Source of the DNA: a virus
Reading direction: 5' to 3' (one strand)
Virus record (IMG/VR): IMGVR_UViG_2645727538_000003
DNA length: 64,000 bases
Below, piece after piece: positions 2,781 to 61,807 of this stretch; positions within the stretch are counted from its first letter, which is position 1; each line of letters begins with the position of its first letter. The position numbers were made by a program, and so were the translations under genes. The notes below the pieces were generated by a model. The model was not told where the DNA came from. It did no database searches and worked only from the letters and a program-made list of their open reading frames with translations.

Positions 2781-3062
2781 TTAATCCTCTTGAGGGACTT
2801 TAATATAATTTGGAGCTTCCTCTAGCATCTCATCAAATATTTCGTCAATTGCTTCCTGAAATACAGTTAACCCGGTTTCACTATTTGTTGAGGTTTCATT
2901 AATCTTTTCAGCAAACCCTTTAGCAAATTGTCTTTTAAATTTAACCTTAATTGATTCATCCCAGTTGTTTGGATTATTGTTGAATGCCACTTCTAACAAA
3001 TCGATCGGTAGAGTAATGACTACATTTTTCCCTTTGACTTTCGCGTAATCCATGATTTCCAT
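2781..3062 (-). CDS. Hypothetical protein
   Basis: ORF track; GAGGAG RBS. Confidence 0.65.
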   Translation of the reverse strand: MEIMDYAKVKGKNVVITLPIDLLEVAFNNNPNNWDESIKVKFKRQFAKGFAEKINETSTNSETGLTVFQEAIDEIFDEMLEEAPNYIKVPQED

Positions 3063-3099
3063 CTCCTCTTTTGTTTAAAATAAAACTTTTAATTAAATC

Positions 3100-3297
3100 T
3101 CAATCAACTGATTCGTATTTAACCCTTGGATAAGTTGTTTGCATATAAACTTTTTTCATGCACAATGGACATTGAAACGGATACTTCGGTGGGTTTGATG
3201 TGAGCATCATATTTGCAAACACGAGCTCTGGAGCTTCCTCGCATTCATCACAATGCAACGTCTCTCTAAAAACTTTAACTTGCTGCGATTTAATCAT
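3100..3297 (-). CDS. Small zinc-ribbon-like protein
   Basis: CDEC and CPLC pairs; GAGGA RBS. Confidence 0.65.
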   Translation of the reverse strand: MIKSQQVKVFRETLHCDECEEAPELVFANMMLTSNPPKYPFQCPLCMKKVYMQTTYPRVKYESVD

Positions 3298-3315
3298 ATT
3301 CAGATTCCTCCTTCG

Positions 3316-3663
3316 TTAAATAAACAATGTACTGACATACAGAACAATCAATGCAAAAGCTGAATGAAGTAAAGACTTACCGGCTTTCTTGAAAATGTTC
3401 TCATCTTTTTCCTGATCTGACCGTTTTACACCTTTGACAAATACGTTGAGTAAAACACCAATAACAAATGCATGAGGTAAAGTGATATGGACATTTTGAA
3501 TGTTGTATGTATCAATAAGCAAAGGATTTAACACGTGATTCAATCCATAATAGACAACTAGTGACATAGTCAATGCTTCAACAAAAATGAGTAACCCAAC
3601 TACAATCAGGGAACCTGATCCAATAAAGAAACCGTTCCAAATATCTTTTGTATTCTTATTCAA
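3316..3663 (-). CDS. Membrane protein (yosE-like)
   Basis: Three hydrophobic segments; synteny. Confidence 0.65.
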   Translation of the reverse strand: MNKNTKDIWNGFFIGSGSLIVVGLLIFVEALTMSLVVYYGLNHVLNPLLIDTYNIQNVHITLPHAFVIGVLLNVFVKGVKRSDQEKDENIFKKAGKSLLHSAFALIVLYVSTLFI

Positions 3664-3677
3664 TAAATATCTCTCCT

Positions 3678-4085
3678 TTAGTCTTTTTTAGTTAGCCTCT
3701 TCCACCAGGAAGTTTTACGTTTTTCTTCTTCCTCTTTAAAGCGTTCATAGTTTTCTTTAACTTGCTGATTCCATTTCTGTATTTTTTCTTGTGTTTGAAT
3801 CGCTTTTTCAAGGCTCTCTTTATCCTCAATTGTTTTAATTACCTTGTCAGTCTGATATGTCCATTCATTTTTTGTGTTGCGCTGCCTGTCTGTTACAACT
3901 ACGTATTCATTAAACCCAGGAATATAAACCTTTCCACCAACTTCAATTGGGTCTAAGTCGATGATTCCTTCAAAAAATGTCTGGAATTCACATTGCTGCT
4001 CAATTGGAACAAGAGCATCACACAGGCCTAACCTCCAACTTTTCTTAATTATCTTCCCTTCAAATGTTGCTTTATGTCGTCCCAC
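3678..4085 (-). CDS. Hypothetical protein (yosD-like), paralog of the adjacent gene
   Basis: ORF track; GGAGGTG RBS; shared motifs with 4097..4645. Confidence 0.7.
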   Translation of the reverse strand: MGRHKATFEGKIIKKSWRLGLCDALVPIEQQCEFQTFFEGIIDLDPIEVGGKVYIPGFNEYVVVTDRQRNTKNEWTYQTDKVIKTIEDKESLEKAIQTQEKIQKWNQQVKENYERFKEEEEKRKTSWWKRLTKKD

Positions 4086-4096
4086 TTATTCACCTC

Positions 4097-4645
4097 CTAC
4101 TGTTGCATCTCTTTCTTAAAAGCATGTTTCAAATGTTGCCAAAATGATATCCTTTTATTTCCTAGCTGATTATCATACTTTTCTTTTCCTTTACTTCCGT
4201 CTAAATACTCCCTTAATTGTTTTTCAGCTTGAATTTTACTCTCCTTATTCTCGACTGTACTTATGACATAATCAGTGAAGTAAATCCATCCTCCATCAAG
4301 CATTTTGACCTTTTTTTCTATATGAACATTTTCATCAAGTTCATTTATGTAAAGAGTGTCGCCGCAGTTAACTTCAAAATTAATTTCATCCTCATAAAAA
4401 GTTTCAGTAGATATATCTAACTCCTCGTGCTCAATAGTTGGTGGCTTTTGTTTGGCAGGGACGCCATGAAAACACGATGGATATACCCTGAAAAGGTAAA
4501 TCTTTTCTATTTTCTTGCCTTTAAATACCGCTCTATGCTTCTCCATTTTCCACCTTCTCACTTTTTGTTTTGATTTGTCGTATACTGCGCTTGCCCGGGA
4601 AATTATGAATATTTCCTTCTGACTATTTCCCTTCACGTTGTTCAT
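4097..4645 (-). CDS. Hypothetical protein (yosC-like); start 4645 (ATGA overlap) or 4546
   Basis: ORF track trimmed to the start coupled with the upstream gene. Confidence 0.65.
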   Translation of the reverse strand: MNNVKGNSQKEIFIISRASAVYDKSKQKVRRWKMEKHRAVFKGKKIEKIYLFRVYPSCFHGVPAKQKPPTIEHEELDISTETFYEDEINFEVNCGDTLYINELDENVHIEKKVKMLDGGWIYFTDYVISTVENKESKIQAEKQLREYLDGSKGKEKYDNQLGNKRISFWQHLKHAFKKEMQQ

Positions 4646-5341: not shown

Positions 5342-6096
5342 TTACACTTCTCCATACAATCAAAGAATGCATTTACACCAATAATACCAGCAGAATTTAC
5401 ACAAGCATAGCAAGCAGTCCCCGCTGTTGCTGGAACACCAGCTGTGCATGCAGCTCCACATAAAATAGCTAAACCGGTAATTGCCCATTGGCTAATATTC
5501 TTATCACCTAAGCAATCTGATACGCATCCAGTCCAACTCTTCTGAGCACTCATCATGTTAGATGAACTTACTTTGTCCTCTGAAGTTTGTTTTGTTTCAA
5601 AGACCCCTGACTTGTCCTCATCCTTAACACCATTAACCCAATAATTCATTTCGTTTTGAGTACTGCTGATTTTCTTCATGTCAACTTCATAGTACTCTTC
5701 AATATTCATATCGCTATCAAACGAAACATTGAATGAGCTAACTCTGTCTACTTTTTCAGTATCCATGTATAAATAAGAAACCGAATAAGTTACTGTGCCA
5801 TCATCATACTTGATACCTCTAACTGATGCATTATCAAATACCTTTTCGTTTGATTTATGATACTTAATGTCTCCATCTTCAATTGCTTTTTCTGCCTTGG
5901 ATAGAAGTTTTTCCTTAGTCTTTTTACTCACATCAATAGTGTGATCTGCAATAAATTCTGCCTCTGATTTTACTTTATCCTTGTCGACATTATCTGTTGA
6001 GATTGTGCTCTTTGCATCACTGTTCGGAGGAAATGTTGAAAAGGCTAGGACAAATACGGCAACTAGTGCTAAGATCGTTCGATAAAAATTGTTCAT
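5338..6096 (-). CDS. Secreted precursor with 8-Cys C-terminal domain, halocin-C8-like bacteriocin candidate (252 aa)
   Basis: ATG at 6096 after AAGGGG RBS; signal peptide MNNFYRTILALVAVFVLAFSTFPPNSDA; C-terminal CxxxC/CxxxC/CxxC/CxxxC around a Gly/Ala-rich hydrophobic core. Confidence 0.7.
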   Translation of the reverse strand: MNNFYRTILALVAVFVLAFSTFPPNSDAKSTISTDNVDKDKVKSEAEFIADHTIDVSKKTKEKLLSKAEKAIEDGDIKYHKSNEKVFDNASVRGIKYDDGTVTYSVSYLYMDTEKVDRVSSFNVSFDSDMNIEEYYEVDMKKISSTQNEMNYWVNGVKDEDKSGVFETKQTSEDKVSSSNMMSAQKSWTGCVSDCLGDKNISQWAITGLAILCGAACTAGVPATAGTACYACVNSAGIIGVNAFFDCMEKCK

Positions 6097-6283
6097 TAAA
6101 ATATCCCCTTTGTAAAAATATAATTCGCATCTGGCACCAATACTTATCAAACAAACAATCTCATAAATCACCTTCTTTCTTTAATAAATGCTACCAATCA
6201 TATAAATAATTGTTAAGAAATACTGATGATTTTGAATATTAAGTAACACAGATGTCCTTATATCAAGGGGATATTGCTCACCT

Positions 6284-6481
6284 TTATAAACAACTTATGT
6301 AATTTTGTAATTCCTTAGATTTAGTAAAAATCTCACCGAATTTTTTGTCTATAGTTTTCCATTGTCTTTCAGATGTTGAAGGCAACTCATTTTCAAGATA
6401 AATGAACAACTCATCAACTCTGCTACTAAGTTGATCTATATTTTGCACAAGTGTTTCTTTTATTGGATCAGATATGTGCAC
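6284..6481 (-). CDS. Hypothetical protein
   Basis: ORF track; GGAGGA RBS. Confidence 0.55.
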   Translation of the reverse strand: MHISDPIKETLVQNIDQLSSRVDELFIYLENELPSTSERQWKTIDKKFGEIFTKSKELQNYISCL

Positions 6482-6494
6482 GGATCCGTCCTCC

Positions 6495-6719
6495 CTATGA
6501 AAAGATAATTACCGCCTTGCTGTTGTTATTTTTTATGTATGGAGAATATTTTCGTTCAAGATAATTAGACGTGCCTTCTCCCAGACTCACATTATAAATA
6601 TCTCTTACTTTATGTACTTCATATGCTTGTTCTTTTGCCTGTTCAGGTGATAACGCCTCAATTACCAAAGACGTATTTTCGCCTTTATGATCTTTACATC
6701 TAACATAGTACCTTTTCAA
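6495..6719 (-). CDS. Hypothetical protein
   Basis: ORF track. Confidence 0.55.
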   Translation of the reverse strand: MKRYYVRCKDHKGENTSLVIEALSPEQAKEQAYEVHKVRDIYNVSLGEGTSNYLERKYSPYIKNNNSKAVIIFS

Positions 6720-6756
6720 TAAACATCCCTTTATCCTTTCTTTTTATCCTGTTGTA

Positions 6757-6984
6757 TTAATCCTCTTTTAGGTAAGCCTTGAAGAACTCGTCTAGGTTTG
6801 CAGCAATCGCTCCAGCAACTTCTGCACAATGATCGTGACTCTTTTCTTGAGATCTTAGAAACTCAACTGCAGACTTTGCAATGGCTTTTATTTTCTCCTC
6901 GTCTAATTTTCCACTTCTTACTTCGTCTTTAATTTTTTCGGCTTCCTCTTTTAAACTTTCTGGATAGTTGACCATAGACTTCAC
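6757..6984 (-). CDS. Hypothetical helical protein
   Basis: ORF track; GAGGTG RBS. Confidence 0.6.
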   Translation of the reverse strand: MKSMVNYPESLKEEAEKIKDEVRSGKLDEEKIKAIAKSAVEFLRSQEKSHDHCAEVAGAIAANLDEFFKAYLKED

Positions 6985-7013
6985 CTCTCATATTTTATTT
7001 TTATTTTTAAAAA

Positions 7014-7235
7014 TTATACAGAAATCAACCTATAATGACCCAGTTCCACGTCTGAAACAGGAACGTAGTCAATCATTCCATCACTTTCAAAACGAACCTT
7101 ATAACAAAGCCTAGACTCTTGATTTTCAGGCTTATATCCAATAAAACCAATAATAATTCCCAACTCATTTTTTCTTCTATGGGCATAGCACGAAATTGGA
7201 TTGATAAACACTTTGCTTTCCATAAGGTACAGCAC
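7014..7235 (-). CDS. Hypothetical small beta-barrel-like protein
   Basis: ORF track; AGGAG RBS. Confidence 0.5.
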   Translation of the reverse strand: MLYLMESKVFINPISCYAHRRKNELGIIIGFIGYKPENQESRLCYKVRFESDGMIDYVPVSDVELGHYRLISV

Positions 7236-7270
7236 TCCTAACTATATGAAATTGATCTTTTATTTAAAGC

Positions 7271-7831
7271 TCATCTTATGTATGACATAGCTTGACCATT
7301 AGATAAGTTATTCATGGTTAGCAATATTTCTTTCATGCCTTCGATTTCATGCCCTTCTTTAACTCGAACCCAAGTTGGAGTGATTCCTTTCTGTTTAAAG
7401 ACAGCATTAATAACATTCTCTCTTTTCTTGTCGGCAATTTTTTTATATCTATGTTCTTTTTCGTCGTACTCGACTATTAGCCAAATATCAGGAAAAAAGA
7501 AATCAAGACGATACCTATCAATTTTCTTTTGTCTTTCAATAATAGTGCTACAGAAGAATCTTCCCAGCCAATCTCCAAAAGATGTTTCAAATCTAGGAGA
7601 CATTTGACTATACTTATATCTTGTTATAAGTCTCTCTTTTCCATGCTCAGTGATTTTGTACAAGGGAAGTTTTTTACCGCGCTGGGACGTATAATATTGT
7701 TTGTCAAAATCGCACTCAAATTCAGGCTGTCTTTCTACGATACTCTTTATATCCCTCAGTACATGGTCATGCCTTTTCTTAAATTCCTCAGCAATCTCCC
7801 TGCTGTCTGATACGAAGTTTTCTTTGATCAT
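7271..7831 (-). CDS. Rha-family N-terminal domain fused to a DUF559/Vsr-like endonuclease domain
   Basis: Rha motif DSREIAEEFKKRHDHVLRDI...YYTSQRGKKLPLYKIT; nuclease-like QKKIDRYRLDFFFP...IVEYDEKEH...DKKRE. Confidence 0.75.
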   Translation of the reverse strand: MIKENFVSDSREIAEEFKKRHDHVLRDIKSIVERQPEFECDFDKQYYTSQRGKKLPLYKITEHGKERLITRYKYSQMSPRFETSFGDWLGRFFCSTIIERQKKIDRYRLDFFFPDIWLIVEYDEKEHRYKKIADKKRENVINAVFKQKGITPTWVRVKEGHEIEGMKEILLTMNNLSNGQAMSYIR

Positions 7832-7958
7832 TTACCCTCCTATTTAATCCCTTTAAAAGAGATATTTCAAACACTTTCACAAACACTTCACACATTTCAA
7901 ATATTTAACATGATAGACTGGAGATGTAATCACAATCAAAACCTAGGAGGTAATTCTT

Positions 7959-8306
7959 ATGAAAAAGTTTTACAAAGGATTGATTGTTTCTGCTCTATCG
8001 CTTACAGCACTAGCACTCCCTGCATTCACATCACAGGCTTCTGCTTTAACCCCTGTCAAATCAGTTGATCAAGTTAAGCAGCTAGGTGATTCGCTTGGTA
8101 CAGTTGATTTTCACATGCTGAGGAATTCTAACGTATCTCTATTAAAAGGCTACACCCGTTGGGAAATTGTATCTGGAAGCAACCTTATAAGCATTAGTTC
8201 CAGTGGTGTCGTATCCTCTCATTCAACTTTGGGCACAGCATTGGTTTACGCGTATGACATTAATGACAACTATGTGATTTATAAAATTACAGTAGAAGCA
8301 CGTTAG
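7959..8306 (+). CDS. Secreted protein with probable Ig-like (Big_2-type) domain
   Basis: Signal peptide ending ASA; W...ISISSSGVV...GTALVYAY pattern; AGGAGG RBS; opposite orientation to neighbours. Confidence 0.6.
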   Translation: MKKFYKGLIVSALSLTALALPAFTSQASALTPVKSVDQVKQLGDSLGTVDFHMLRNSNVSLLKGYTRWEIVSGSNLISISSSGVVSSHSTLGTALVYAYDINDNYVIYKITVEAR

Positions 8307-58287: not shown

Positions 58288-58491
58288 TTACCTTCTTTTG
58301 GCGTATACAAAGTAAGCGATCCATAACAAAATGACAATGATACACGTTACTATGAAGATAGCCGTAATAAGCGACTGTATTCCGCTGCTGAAGTAATCTT
58401 TGATGAAGAGGAACAATAAGAATAAAACAATAAATGTTATGTTCGTAAACCATAATGAGAATCGTGTCATGTTTACAAAGTGCTTGTCCAT
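58288..58491 (-). CDS. yoyJ: Two-TM membrane toxin-like protein
   Basis: Two hydrophobic helices; directly downstream of yonT. Confidence 0.65.
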   Translation of the reverse strand: MDKHFVNMTRFSLWFTNITFIVLFLLFLFIKDYFSSGIQSLITAIFIVTCIIVILLWIAYFVYAKRR

Positions 58492-58504: not shown

Positions 58505-58610
58505 TAGTGACTAAAGGGGAATTAATCCCCTTTAGCGTGTTATCTGCGTATACGTTTGCGTTGTCTCTTGCTACGGAGGCGCTTGCGTGTACGCTTTTTA
58601 TTTTTGCTTT
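58505..58610 (+). ncRNA. SR6-like antisense antitoxin RNA (ends approximate)
   Basis: Plus-strand promoter TTTACA(58472)-16-TATAAT(58494) with extended TG; hairpin CTAAAGGGGA-ATTAA-TCCCCTTTAG; overlaps the yonT 3' end. Confidence 0.55.
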
Positions 58611-58719
58611 TCTTATTCTTCATCAGGTTTTGAATCTTCTCAGCTATCGTTAAACAGTTGATGATTAAAACCGTGATAGGAATAAGGAAAGCAATTGTTA
58701 TACCCACTTTCTCAAGCAC
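58540..58719 (-). CDS. yonT: Type I toxin YonT (59 aa)
   Basis: GTG start after AGGAGGTG; hydrophobic helix followed by a highly basic tail KKRTRKRLRSKRQRKRIRR. Confidence 0.88.
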   Translation of the reverse strand: MLEKVGITIAFLIPITVLIINCLTIAEKIQNLMKNKKSKNKKRTRKRLRSKRQRKRIRR

Positions 58720-58799
58720 TATGTACACCTCCTTTCCTATAACTCTATTATAGCACATTCTTCTTACAAAGTCATTTTATTTTTACTCTAAATATGGAT

Positions 58800-59660
58800 T
58801 TTTTAAATTATTTTGGACTATTATTCATGTGTGTATAGGCTGTATAAGGCGTGTATGTGGATTGGATACCAATGATACTATGATTAAATTAAAATTGATT
58901 CTAGGTGGATTAGAATGCTTCTGATGATACCTGGTTAGTTTGCTATAGGATGGATATATGATGTATGGTGAAGGAAACGGATAGAGATGAGGACAAGCAA
59001 GGTTATGGGTGGATATAATGGGAAGGAATATGGTTAGGATGAATATAAAATAGGTGTATGAATTGATGAGTAAATTGCATAGATAAAAAATAAGACTTCG
59101 ATTTGCTTCCTTTCGTTATATACACGATTATTTTAATGAATGGGTATTCACTTTTAAATTGACCGCTTAATTATTTTTTCAAAAATAAATATTGTTTTTC
59201 ATTTGAAATTGTGTTAGCTGTGCAAATTTATCAGCCAAATCATAAAAACCCTACATAACGTATCTTATATAGGGAATTAAATACCAATATATAGGGGGTA
59301 TATTAACATCTAAAGGCCAAAAAATAGGAACAAATGTACCCCTAGCACTTCCATTTCCACACCCAACTTATTTTTTCACTTTCCCATTTTTCAGCCTATT
59401 TTCACATCGTAATCGCTATCGTAAAAGCCTATAATATCAATGTTTTTCCACCCCTTATTCTCCCCTTTTTCATCAGATTTTTAAATAAACAACCACTTTT
59501 CCTCTCTCCTGTCTACGTTTTACGATCACAAAACACCTATTATCCCCTTTGACAGCTCTAAATCATTGCTATATCAACTAAATAACCCTTTCCAATCTTC
59601 ATTTACGATAAGTACTTTTTTTAGCTCACGAACACTAAGGGGGTCATAAAAAATCAAAAT
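58800..59660. other. Long non-coding region, origin-of-replication candidate
   Basis: No ORF of 60 aa or more; G-rich 58820-59080 then C-rich 59340-59600; repeated TTTACGAT/ATCGTAAA and ATATCAA motifs. Confidence 0.45.
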
Positions 59661-59685
59661 AAAAAAGCCACCTTAATTGGCAGCT
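59661..59685 (-). terminator. Terminator after the tubulin-like gene
   Basis: Minus strand GCTGCC-AATTAA-GGTGGC-TTTTTT. Confidence 0.7.
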
Positions 59686-59696
59686 TCCCTTTAAAA

Positions 59697-60809
59697 TTAG
59701 CGCTTTAGTCTCTTCAGCGCCTCCATATACGAGGTCTTTTTCGATTCCTTGTTCTCCAGTTTCTTCGGTTTAAATAAATCCTCTCTACGGCGATTCTTCG
59801 CTTTATAAACAGTTGTTTCTTTAACTTCAGTGTTCCCATTTTCAATTAAATCATCTAACTGCTTCATTCGCTCATTGATCCAGGTTAATCCACTAAGAAT
59901 CGTTATCGCCCTATTACCTTTATCATAATGCCCTTTAAATAAGTCTAGGGGCATCTTGTTATCAAAGACATTAAACAGCTCATTATACGATATATGCTCC
60001 GTTAAGAACTCATGAACATCCAGAATGACTCCAGCTCTCATCACATTTGTAAACTCAACAGGAGTGAAAATCGAATTGTTCCACGACTTTTGTATATCTT
60101 CATGCAGCTTATCAAAATACTTACCCTCATTTGTAAATTCATTGAGGTCTGTTTGAGCAATAGTCATGATTCCTGGTGTGTCAAAAAGCTGATTTAAATC
60201 CTTCCTGTCTAATGTACTGATCTTTGATCCTCTGTCCGTGTAATTGAGTAAGACTTCGATTAAATCAAGGAACATCTTGTTTGTCTCCTTGTATAGTCTG
60301 CTTTCAGAAATCTTCCCTTCATATTTGCTCAAAACCATTTGATTATCCAAAGGTAAGACACAGATCTCTGGCATAGATAAGTCATCAAGCAACTCCAGTG
60401 TATTCATCTGGTTAACCAATACCTCATTATTGTCAGGAAGGATTGGTACAGCAACTATTGTTTTATGTGTAAGACATTCGTTTAACAATTCTAATAATAT
60501 ATGGGCTACTCCTGAACCGGTTCCACCAGCTGCAGAGAAAACTACGAAAATAACTTGAACTGAAGGCTTTTCCATTGTGTTCTTTATAAACTCAATAGAG
60601 GACTCCCAGTTATTTTTCATATGTTTCGCTGCTACGCTTCTGTCTTTACCTACTCCTTCTGTCCCTACCAGATGAAGCTTATCTTGAATATTGATTAATG
60701 AATTAAGGTCTGAAAGTGAATAATTTATTGCAACAGAATGAAATCCTCTCTTCATTGCTTCATCCGCTATACTTCCACCGGCCTGACCAACTCCAATAAA
60801 TCCAAACAT
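59697..60809 (-). CDS. Tubulin/FtsZ-family GTPase (TubZ-like)
   Basis: FIGVGQAGGSI; GVGKDR; signature AAGGTGSG; LPLDN; TLDRKDL; charged C-terminal tail. Confidence 0.9.
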   Translation of the reverse strand: MFGFIGVGQAGGSIADEAMKRGFHSVAINYSLSDLNSLINIQDKLHLVGTEGVGKDRSVAAKHMKNNWESSIEFIKNTMEKPSVQVIFVVFSAAGGTGSGVAHILLELLNECLTHKTIVAVPILPDNNEVLVNQMNTLELLDDLSMPEICVLPLDNQMVLSKYEGKISESRLYKETNKMFLDLIEVLLNYTDRGSKISTLDRKDLNQLFDTPGIMTIAQTDLNEFTNEGKYFDKLHEDIQKSWNNSIFTPVEFTNVMRAGVILDVHEFLTEHISYNELFNVFDNKMPLDLFKGHYDKGNRAITILSGLTWINERMKQLDDLIENGNTEVKETTVYKAKNRRREDLFKPKKLENKESKKTSYMEALKRLKR

Positions 60810-61093
60810 TAAACCCTCTCCCCTTCTAATTGATATCTCAAAGCTTCTTGACCATATTGAGTAATAAAAATTGTATGCTCTTTACTGTTTTTCACTATAT
60901 TAATAAATTGCAAGGCCTCCAGCCGATCGATGCTCTTTCTAAAGGTAGCATCAGTTAACTGAGTTTTTGCTTGAATGGTTTTCTTCCTAATTGATTTAAA
61001 CTTTAAATCAGCCCCTTCATCACTCAATAAGCCTAGAATATACAGATCATTTCGAGTTAAGTTGTCAATTACAGAATCAAAATAAGTATCCAT
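60809..61093 (-). CDS. Winged-helix DNA-binding protein (TubR-like, 94 aa)
   Basis: ATG at 61093 after AGGAGGGG; TDATFRKSIDRLEALQFINIV...TIFITQYG wHTH; TAATG overlap with the tubulin gene. Confidence 0.75.
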   Translation of the reverse strand: MDTYFDSVIDNLTRNDLYILGLLSDEGADLKFKSIRKKTIQAKTQLTDATFRKSIDRLEALQFINIVKNSKEHTIFITQYGQEALRYQLEGERV

Positions 61094-61160
61094 GTAACCC
61101 CTCCTTAATATCTGATGATTTTGAAGTATCTTGGTTGATATACGATTATTATATTGTCTA

Positions 61161-61202
61161 TTTGTATTTGAATGCAAATATTTTTGTATCTTAATGCAAA
61201 TA
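61161..61202. repeat. Two 20-bp direct repeats at 22-bp period upstream of the tubR-like gene (tubC candidate)
   Basis: TTTGTATTTGAATGCAAATA and TTTGTATCTTAATGCAAATA. Confidence 0.6.
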
Positions 61203-61271
61203 ATCATACTCTGCTTGTATGTAAACCAGTCATTTTATAAAATTTATTCAAACAGCAAAAGGATGATTTAA

Positions 61272-61508
61272 ATGGAATATAGGGTTAAAAGTAAGTTGGA
61301 TTCATTTTTAAGCAGCAAAGGTATCGAAAAAGGCTGGTTAGCAGAGCAAATAAAAGCTGAAAGAGCAAGTATATCTAGATGGTGTAAAAATGACAGCGAG
61401 GGATTTGCAACCGTCCTCCCTAGTACATACAATCTTTTATTGATGGCACATGTTCTAAATTGTAAAGTTGACGATCTTTTTGAATTAATCGAAATTAAAT
61501 CCAATTAA
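61272..61508 (+). CDS. XRE-family HTH protein
   Basis: LDSFLSSKGIEKGWLAEQI...SISRWC...AHVLNCKVDDLF. Confidence 0.8.
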   Translation: MEYRVKSKLDSFLSSKGIEKGWLAEQIKAERASISRWCKNDSEGFATVLPSTYNLLLMAHVLNCKVDDLFELIEIKSN

Positions 61509-61523
61509 CTTTGGATTTTTATG

Positions 61524-61552
61524 TTTACAAGAGTAAAAATAAAATATATAAT
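61524..61552 (+). promoter_or_regulatory. Sigma-A promoter whose 17-nt spacer is the repeated phage element
   Basis: TTTACA-AGAGTAAAAATAAAATA-TATAAT upstream of yonP/yonO. Confidence 0.8.
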
Positions 61553-61627
61553 AAAGACACAACCACGTGAAGTGGTCTTTATTTTAATCATTTTAAGAGT
61601 AAAAATAAAATAGTATGGAGGTGTAAG

Positions 61628-61807
61628 ATGAAAAAGCAGTATTTATTTAGTCATTTATTGGGGTTTATTGAGGGAAAAGTAGTCGATGGTACAGCAACAC
61701 CCGAAGAAGAATACCTTTATCAGGATTACAAGTGGTACGGAAAGATTAATAAGCACAGCTTTACATATCGAAGTTTAGTAAATCAATATCTTAATAGCGA
61801 ATATTAA
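61628..61807 (+). CDS. Small protein (59 aa, yonP-like)
   Basis: Manual ORF MKKQYLFSHLLGFIEGKVVDGTATPEEEYLYQDYKWYGKINKHSFTYRSLVNQYLNSEY with GGAGGTG RBS. Confidence 0.65.
   Translation: MKKQYLFSHLLGFIEGKVVDGTATPEEEYLYQDYKWYGKINKHSFTYRSLVNQYLNSEY

Follow-up and report, generated by a model that had tools for sequence, protein, structure and literature searches.

Organization of the tubRZ locus

The IMG/VR provirus record IMGVR_UViG_2645727538_000003 (125,329 bp), of which a stretch of 64 kb was analyzed here (the window), carries on its minus strand a compact operon of two genes, tubR and tubZ, closed by a terminator and laid out like the type III partition systems of bacterial plasmids, in which filaments of the tubulin type transport large plasmids. 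A preliminary description of this sequence had proposed that a cis-acting site, tubR and tubZ follow one another in this order, and the order, with a candidate site and with genuine TubR and TubZ homologues, is borne out by sequence comparison, structure matches and synteny. The tubR gene (60809–61093, minus strand) encodes a predicted winged-helix homologue of centromere-binding proteins with 94 amino acids (aa), and is preceded by a Shine-Dalgarno sequence, AAGGAGG, read from the sequence at 61100–61106 (minus strand), 6 nt before the ATG. The tubZ gene (59697–60809, minus strand) encodes a predicted 370-aa GTPase of the tubulin/FtsZ fold and is coupled to the 94-aa gene, the tubR TAA overlapping the tubZ ATG (TAATG; shared base 60809). 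An intrinsic-terminator-like hairpin of 12 pairs with a T-run (59690–59661, minus strand), located 7 nt past the end of tubZ, closes the operon. Gene positions, coupling and terminator all lie where the preliminary description had placed them.

A sigma-A-like promoter for tubR was predicted by eye on the minus strand, with a −35 element TTGCAT (61177–61172), a spacer of 18 nt and a −10 element TATAAT (61153–61148), and a consensus promoter scan returned a weaker overlapping variant at 61172–61145. A sporulation-sigma reading of the upstream string CATACAAG was also considered, and was dropped as unconvincing by eye. On the opposite strand, 178 bp from the start of tubR, begins a divergent gene (61272–61508, plus strand) encoding a 78-aa helix-turn-helix (HTH) protein of the Cro/C1 type (XRE), which is the first gene of the xre-yonP-yonO direction and is followed by a yonP-like gene (phrog_20387) and then by yonO. 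The YonO protein of the window is 87% identical to SPBc2 YonO, in agreement with the phage context that had been claimed for the cassette. The same interval is occupied in SPBc2 by yonR, yonS, yonT and yonU, and the cassette is seated in an early divergent control region, where SPbeta itself has yonR-yonS. A search against Rfam returned no match inside the cassette itself. Contigs from RNA libraries of three studies cover a 95–99% relative of tubZ together with its downstream DNA, and in two of the three studies tubR and the 5′ part of tubZ are covered by short, low-depth contigs only; these data are contigs in which DNA carry-over is possible, and they do not allow level, strand or silence to be inferred.

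TubR and TubZ homologues

The TubR protein yields only sub-threshold winged-helix matches in Pfam. In a phmmer search, its residues 1–89 match the TubR of plasmid pBM400 (4ASN) with an E-value of 1.3e-17 and 39% identity over 89 residues, and the profile of a nine-member TubR family recovers 4ASN with an E-value of 1.6e-38 and the TubR of the Clostridium botulinum phage c-st (6TEY) with 6e-8. The AlphaFold2 (AF2) model of the protein, with a predicted local distance difference test score (pLDDT) of 85, was matched by Foldseek to 4ASN with template modeling (TM) scores of 0.87/0.91 and a root-mean-square deviation of 1.1 Å, c-st TubR (6TEY) being the next match. Judged by sequence profile and modeled fold, the 94-aa protein is a true TubR homologue.

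TubZ matches PF00091 with 67.5 bits (cut-off 33) and keeps the nucleotide-binding motifs GVGQAGG and AGGTGSG, the GGTGSG box being invariant in 24 homologues, as are D201 and D204 at what is presumed to be the T7 loop position, where acidic residues are necessary for GTP hydrolysis coupled to polymerization. The AF2 model (pLDDT 86) comprises a folded core (residues 1–328), a disordered segment (329–359) and a terminal helix (361–369), and the C-terminal end of the protein carries a conserved peptide, KKxSxxDILxKYK in the consensus of the 24 aligned homologues, in which L365 is nearly invariant. The best sequence matches in the PDB are the c-st TubZ structures 4xcq and 3v3t, by a marginal distance (8e-13 for c-st TubZ vs. 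3e-12 for CetZ). Foldseek likewise places c-st TubZ (3v3t/4xcq) first (TMt 0.84), followed by the TubZ of Bacillus thuringiensis and Bacillus cereus (2xka, 4ei7) interleaved with archaeal CetZ, and by FtsZ at lower ranks. Among PHROGs, TubZ is matched better by the unnamed phrog_17961 than by phrog_4733 (a partial, weaker match; E 6e-9). By sequence matches and model alike, this protein has more in common with characterized TubZ than with FtsZ, CetZ or tubulin.

The tubulin/FtsZ fold, the names 'cell division protein FtsZ' and 'CetZ' attached to relatives in public databases, and the position of the cassette in an early control region could all be taken to suggest that TubZ manipulates the host, through the FtsZ ring or cell shape, rather than phage DNA, with TubR acting as a repressor of the operon only. 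The public names are automatic labels, however, and an identification as FtsZ or CetZ was rejected: the FtsZ equivalog TIGR00065 scores 22.2 bits against a cut-off of 295.2, and identity to FtsZ structures is only about 15–17%. Furthermore, in a synteny set of 65 loci with TubZ at least 33% identical to that of the window, every one of the 65, true plasmids included, has a tubR homologue that ends where tubZ begins, and this obligatory pairing argues for a DNA cargo. The interference with host FtsZ that the preliminary description had entertained finds no support, and a role in host manipulation is very improbable.

The upstream region and the divergent XRE gene

Upstream of tubR, at the places given in the preliminary description, lie two 20-nt repeats, the promoter-proximal unit 2 (61161–61180) and the distal unit 1 (61183–61202), which are 90% identical, stand 22 bp apart from start to start and form one imperfect palindrome each. 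Their form is TTTGTAT-N4-ATGCAAA on the plus strand and TTTGCAT-N4-ATRCAAA on the tubR strand, and they overlap the predicted tubR −35 element and spacer, the −35 element falling inside unit 2. The motif does not occur again in the 64-kb window and, when three mismatches were tolerated, its number of matches was reached in 19 of 100 shuffles, which makes the two-copy pair statistically uncompelling when taken alone. Both repeats are kept in 23 close loci, and unit 2 is in most relatives the perfect 18-bp palindrome TTTGCATTTAAATGCAAA.

Across 27 lineages, the strongest conserved k-mer upstream of tubR is AGGAGG. The TTTGCAT half-site is not enriched in the other lineages (7 observed vs. 4.7 expected), 8-mer repeat families do not rise above shuffles within lineages, the DNA being AT-rich, and palindrome strength does not separate lineages with an adjacent XRE gene from those without. 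The motif that does stand out is CAAG, mostly as CAAGC or CAAGA, of which the 150 nt preceding tubR in the 27 lineages contain 38 copies on the strand of the gene, where about 13 would be expected; this count was reached in none of 500 shuffles and is the top value among 32 offsets tried along the loci, and the counts are not independent because the lineages are related. One such box, CAAG(A), lies in the tubR leader of the window (61130–61133, minus strand), within the string ATCAACCAAGATA that is shared with the distant lineage L088, and another, CAAG(C), lies upstream of the repeats (61214–61217, minus strand). In L088, which lacks an adjacent XRE gene, five copies of AnCAAGAT follow each other at exactly 10 bp. 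The CAAG motif may be either a TubR box or a promoter element. The two-unit site fits an operator better than a multi-iteron centromere, and 61161–61202, possibly together with the flanking CAAG boxes, is the best candidate for a TubR nucleation site.

The divergent XRE protein matches PF13443 with 26.9 bits (cut-off 22) and is not related to SPBc2 YonR. A homologue lies directly upstream of tubR, in divergent orientation, in at least 15 of the 26 other lineages. The product of this gene is a candidate for a second regulator acting on the intergenic region that it shares with tubR. In three loci that are otherwise 90% identical to that of the window (L051, L060 and L070), a block that runs from the end of yonP to the last 18 codons of tubR, and corresponds to 60862–61785 of the window, has been replaced by a divergent allele. 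The replacement brings in a new xre gene, new intergenic DNA and most of a new tubR, leaves the last 18 tubR codons and tubZ unchanged, and puts a new perfect palindrome, GTAATCATTAATGATTAC, in the same place. This arrangement looks like the swap of a specificity module, and it shows that regulators and site co-vary in this group.

The geometry of the repeats raises the alternative that the palindromes are operators of the divergent XRE repressor, which would switch between xre-yonP-yonO and tubRZ, and that the TubR sites lie elsewhere, in the CAAG boxes or the leader. The 7-nt half-sites are 4 nt apart and about one helical turn from center to center, and the two units are two turns apart. 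Half-sites spaced by one turn in units spaced by two turns are the classical layout for cooperative dimers of the Cro/CI type. The frequent presence of a divergent XRE gene beside tubR and the exchange of xre, intergenic DNA and tubR as a single block are in line with this alternative, as is the prospect that the enriched CAAG motif is the real TubR box, given its phased copies in the XRE-less L088. On the other hand, CAAG may be a mere promoter element, and palindromes near the promoter are also seen in L071, L075 and L079, where no XRE gene is adjacent; in L079, which has no divergent XRE gene, the same ATGCAAA and TTTGTAT half-sites as in the window stand just before the tubR ribosome-binding site (RBS). 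Furthermore, in all type III systems studied, the DNA bound by TubR lies immediately upstream of tubR and includes the promoter (PMC6009700, PMC7762940). Assignment of the palindromes to the XRE repressor is possible, if somewhat doubtful.

Distribution and selection

Relatives of TubZ with about 370 aa make up a small family, of 83 clusters, in the Bacillaceae and Paenibacillaceae. The 65 loci of the synteny set comprise 26 velezensis-type proviruses, B. pumilus-type proviruses, many viral contigs of 100–180 kb, Paenibacillus elements and plasmids of Priestia megaterium; among the P. megaterium loci, one (L037) is labeled as a plasmid and three (L032–L034) encode a TubR practically identical in sequence to 4ASN. 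A tubR-tubZ pair (gp137/gp138) is likewise found in the jumbo Bacillus phage G, and the cassette is missing from all isolated SPbeta-type phages of the phage collection. A Bacillus phage cassette 99% identical to that of the window is found on a 133-kb contig labeled Streptomyces sp. (L027, NZ_JBHVTC010000023.1), a label most likely due to assembly contamination or mislabeling.

In a survey of 80 IMG/VR contigs bearing YonO, scored for a cassette adjoining yonO, the cassette was found beside yonO in all 18 contigs whose YonO shares 95% identity or more with that of the window (velezensis-type), in all five contigs of the 71% identity band (pumilus-type) and in 3 of the 37 contigs that remain once the SPbeta-proper group, discussed below, is also set apart; in some of these 37, the pair is located at another place on the contig. 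Within the YonO-bearing phages, the cassette is specific to certain clades. Compared with close relatives, the ratio of nonsynonymous to synonymous substitution rates (dN/dS) is 0.03–0.09 for tubZ and 0.02–0.05 for tubR and, on these sequence comparisons, both genes are under strong purifying selection.

The survey also revealed variation in yonO itself. The match is about 331 nt longer in five contigs (L130, L131, L133, L161 and L163), which corresponds to an insertion of about 330 nt, and ends at residue 625 in seven others (L129, L132, L139, L143–145 and L158). In the element plaBV1 (L199), the region (5451–8202) is annotated as two coding sequences, 'CoiA family' and hypothetical. An intron, an intein or a split gene are possible explanations for these variants.

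Integrated and possible episomal states

Homologues of the cassette are found on contigs of 1.6–4.9 Mb, and these lengths, together with the provirus class of the window's record, indicate that the usual carrier state is integrated. A different configuration is offered by plaBV1 of B. velezensis HMB26553 (NZ_CP097468.1), a circular SPbeta-like phage genome of 122,487 bp and 35% GC whose cassette is 96.3% identical to that of the window and which the genome paper lists simply as a plasmid (PMC10177454). This element is compatible with an episomal state, and equally with the assembly of induced phage DNA. The window phage may itself adopt a plasmid-like state, as the preliminary description had inferred. 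The record of the window yielded no serine recombinase and a single tyrosine-recombinase-like match, a result that is silent on lifestyle because a provirus record may be trimmed.

Proposed function of the cassette

The evidence presented above suggests that the cassette is probably a functional type III (TubZRC) tubRZ operon of the pBM400 lineage that acts on excised or replicating phage DNA. In characterized systems, TubR attaches to the DNA upstream of tubR, represses the tubRZ operon and recruits TubZ via TubZ's C-terminal tail (PMC5016525, PMC6009700, PMC7762940). In the window phage, TubR dimers would bind their own promoter region, repressing the operon and assembling with the phage DNA into a nucleoprotein complex. 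With GTP, TubZ would form dynamic filaments and would engage the TubR-DNA complex through its flexible tail and terminal helix, so that the phage genome, of about 125 kb, would be pulled or positioned in the cell. Partition is of no use to a prophage while it is integrated, and the most likely target of the machine is therefore an excised, circular or replicating genome. Its action would come early after induction, in the positioning or spreading of replicating copies, and a heritable episomal state may arise as a by-product. The tubR-tubZ pair of phage G and the precedent of AlpC in prophage CGP3, described below, make an early lytic role at least as likely as plasmid-like inheritance, and the two roles are not exclusive.

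Several observations weigh against this interpretation. Regarding the site, the candidate tubC consists of two 20-bp units only, plus dispersed CAAG boxes, and the studied systems of pBtoxis, pBsph and c-st possess several iterons arranged in blocks (PMC6009700, PMC7762940). The 7-N4-7 geometry of the palindromes would fit a dimer of XRE just as well as TubR, no single iteron was seen to recur in every lineage, with only the RBS among the top k-mers, and the covariation seen in the L051 group cannot assign the palindromes to one protein because xre, intergenic DNA and tubR were swapped together. Regarding accessory factors, the plasmids that have been studied depend for their stable maintenance on TubY, a modulator with a MerR-like HTH and a coiled coil (PMC7762940), and there is no MerR-like open reading frame (ORF) flanking the cassette, nor did a query with c-st TubY find a match in the 125-kb record. 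The tubY gene lies outside the tubRZ operon, in a position that is not conserved (PMC7762940). On virulent Bacillus plasmids tubY is located upstream of tubRZ (PMC7762940), the position held here by the 78-aa XRE gene, which encodes an unrelated type of protein; that XRE is a functional analogue of TubY is speculation. Regarding the episomal state, a 118-kb SPbeta-like B. subtilis element that lacks the cassette has also been deposited as a plasmid, and plaBV1 hence does not tie such a state to TubRZ. Lastly, the cassette adjoins yonO in none of 20 SPbeta-proper contigs (YonO 84–88% identical), and the loss of one base breaks tubZ in two close proviruses (L058 and L060; tubZ at 3001–4112), the gene also being split on the P. 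megaterium plasmid copy L037 (4965–6089). The cassette is therefore dispensable; the broken copies may be real pseudogenes or assembly errors.

Pressed further, the absence from SPbeta-proper phages and the frameshifted tubZ copies could mark the cassette as a relic of some plasmid-derived module, inert and with no current role. With dN/dS values of 0.02–0.09 across both genes, intact frames, invariant catalytic motifs, and presence at the same position in every velezensis-type (18/18) and pumilus-type (5/5) YonO phage surveyed, such a reading is scarcely credible, and the cassette is better described as selected but losable. A working tubRZ operon acting on excised or replicating DNA also admits a stronger version, in which the SPbeta-like phages of the velezensis and pumilus groups are facultative plasmid-prophages: the excised 125-kb circle, released by spontaneous, stress-induced or sporulation-linked excision, would persist as a low-copy episome under active segregation by a tubulin spindle that forms on a minimal centromere of two units, with XRE replacing TubY. 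We regard this joint scenario as unlikely; if true, these phages would have, between lysis and lysogeny in the integrated form, a further state that is heritable and the third in number.

Both proteins fall into a family that is already known and structurally characterized, and the new aspect is their setting: a cassette selected across a clade of integrated SPbeta-like prophages, without TubY and with a minimal repeat site. Studies of type III partition have so far been confined to Bacillus plasmids and the plasmid-like clostridial phage c-st, and no functional study of tubRZ in SPbeta-type phages was found among the papers searched. The cassette thus raises the question of what use a partition motor has for a phage that is normally integrated, with the positioning of replicating genomes, the retention of excised copies and a carrier state as candidate uses. 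The hosts are genetically tractable and close to the model B. subtilis and, since SPbeta itself lacks the cassette, natural phages with and without it are available for comparison.

Neighboring features

Two further features were observed downstream of the operon. At 58508–58605 (plus strand), Rfam identifies an SR6 antitoxin RNA (86.9 bits; cut-off 55), which runs antisense between or over two small membrane-type ORFs (58288–58491 and 58540–58758, both on the minus strand), one of them with a Lys/Arg-rich tail. This locus beside the cassette looks like a retained type I toxin-antitoxin system of the yonT/yoyJ-SR6 type. The DNA between these ORFs and tubZ (58759–59696), downstream of tubZ, spans about 940 bp without a convincing ORF, and contains a second terminator-like hairpin (59274–59249, minus strand) and three GGATGGATATA-like copies at 58948, 59007 and 59037. 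It is crossed by RNA-library contigs of three studies.

Comparison with known systems

The closest relative with a solved structure is the TubRZ system of pBM400 from P. megaterium (TubR 4ASN). The pBM400-like loci (L032–L034 and L037) encode TubZ proteins about 38–41% identical to that of the window and display the same gene order and the same stop-start overlap between tubR and tubZ. They differ in that the pBM400 replicon is a plasmid while the window belongs to an integrated prophage, in having as upstream neighbor a co-directional 326-aa HTH protein instead of a small divergent XRE gene, and in carrying upstream repeats of the AGTATCT type where the window has TTTGCAT palindromes. The systems of pBtoxis (B. 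thuringiensis) and pBc10987 (B. cereus) are more distant. Their TubZ folds match that of the window (2XKA, 4EI7; TM about 0.7) and they also encode a winged-helix-turn-helix TubR upstream of TubZ, but their TubZ proteins are 17–19% identical to the window's and longer in the matched structures (395–402 and 381–382 residues, respectively, vs. 370). The tubRZ operon is autoregulated in this type of system, and the tubC of pBtoxis consists of several direct repeats in two blocks (PMC5016525).

Phage c-st resembles the window in that its system is phage-borne and follows the same order of site, tubR and tubZ, and it provides the best match for the window TubZ and the second best for TubR. Its TubZ is nonetheless only about 26% identical to that of the window, it is maintained as a plasmid prophage whereas the window record is integrated, and it carries a MerR-like tubY gene downstream that the window does not have. 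The tubC of c-st, of about 350 bp, contains two kinds of 4–5-bp iterons in two blocks (PMC6009700). An IMG/VR contig of 74,599 bp (L193), apparently of the c-st type, encodes a YonO homologue with 50% identity, and Clostridium phage D-1873 carries TubZ; phages of the c-st and SPbeta types may therefore share both a YonO-type RNA polymerase and TubRZ.

Two other phage cytoskeletal systems serve as points of reference. The PhuZ tubulin of nucleus-forming jumbo phages positions viral DNA in lytic growth and has no TubR adaptor, in contrast with TubZ of the window type, which is paired with TubR in all 65 loci. In the integrated prophage CGP3 of Corynebacterium glutamicum, viral DNA is reported to replicate efficiently after induction only if the actin-like AlpC is present (PMC4446434). 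The AlpC-AlpA pair forms filaments of the actin type and its proteins are unrelated to those of the window, but it supplies a cytoskeletal precedent in an integrated prophage.

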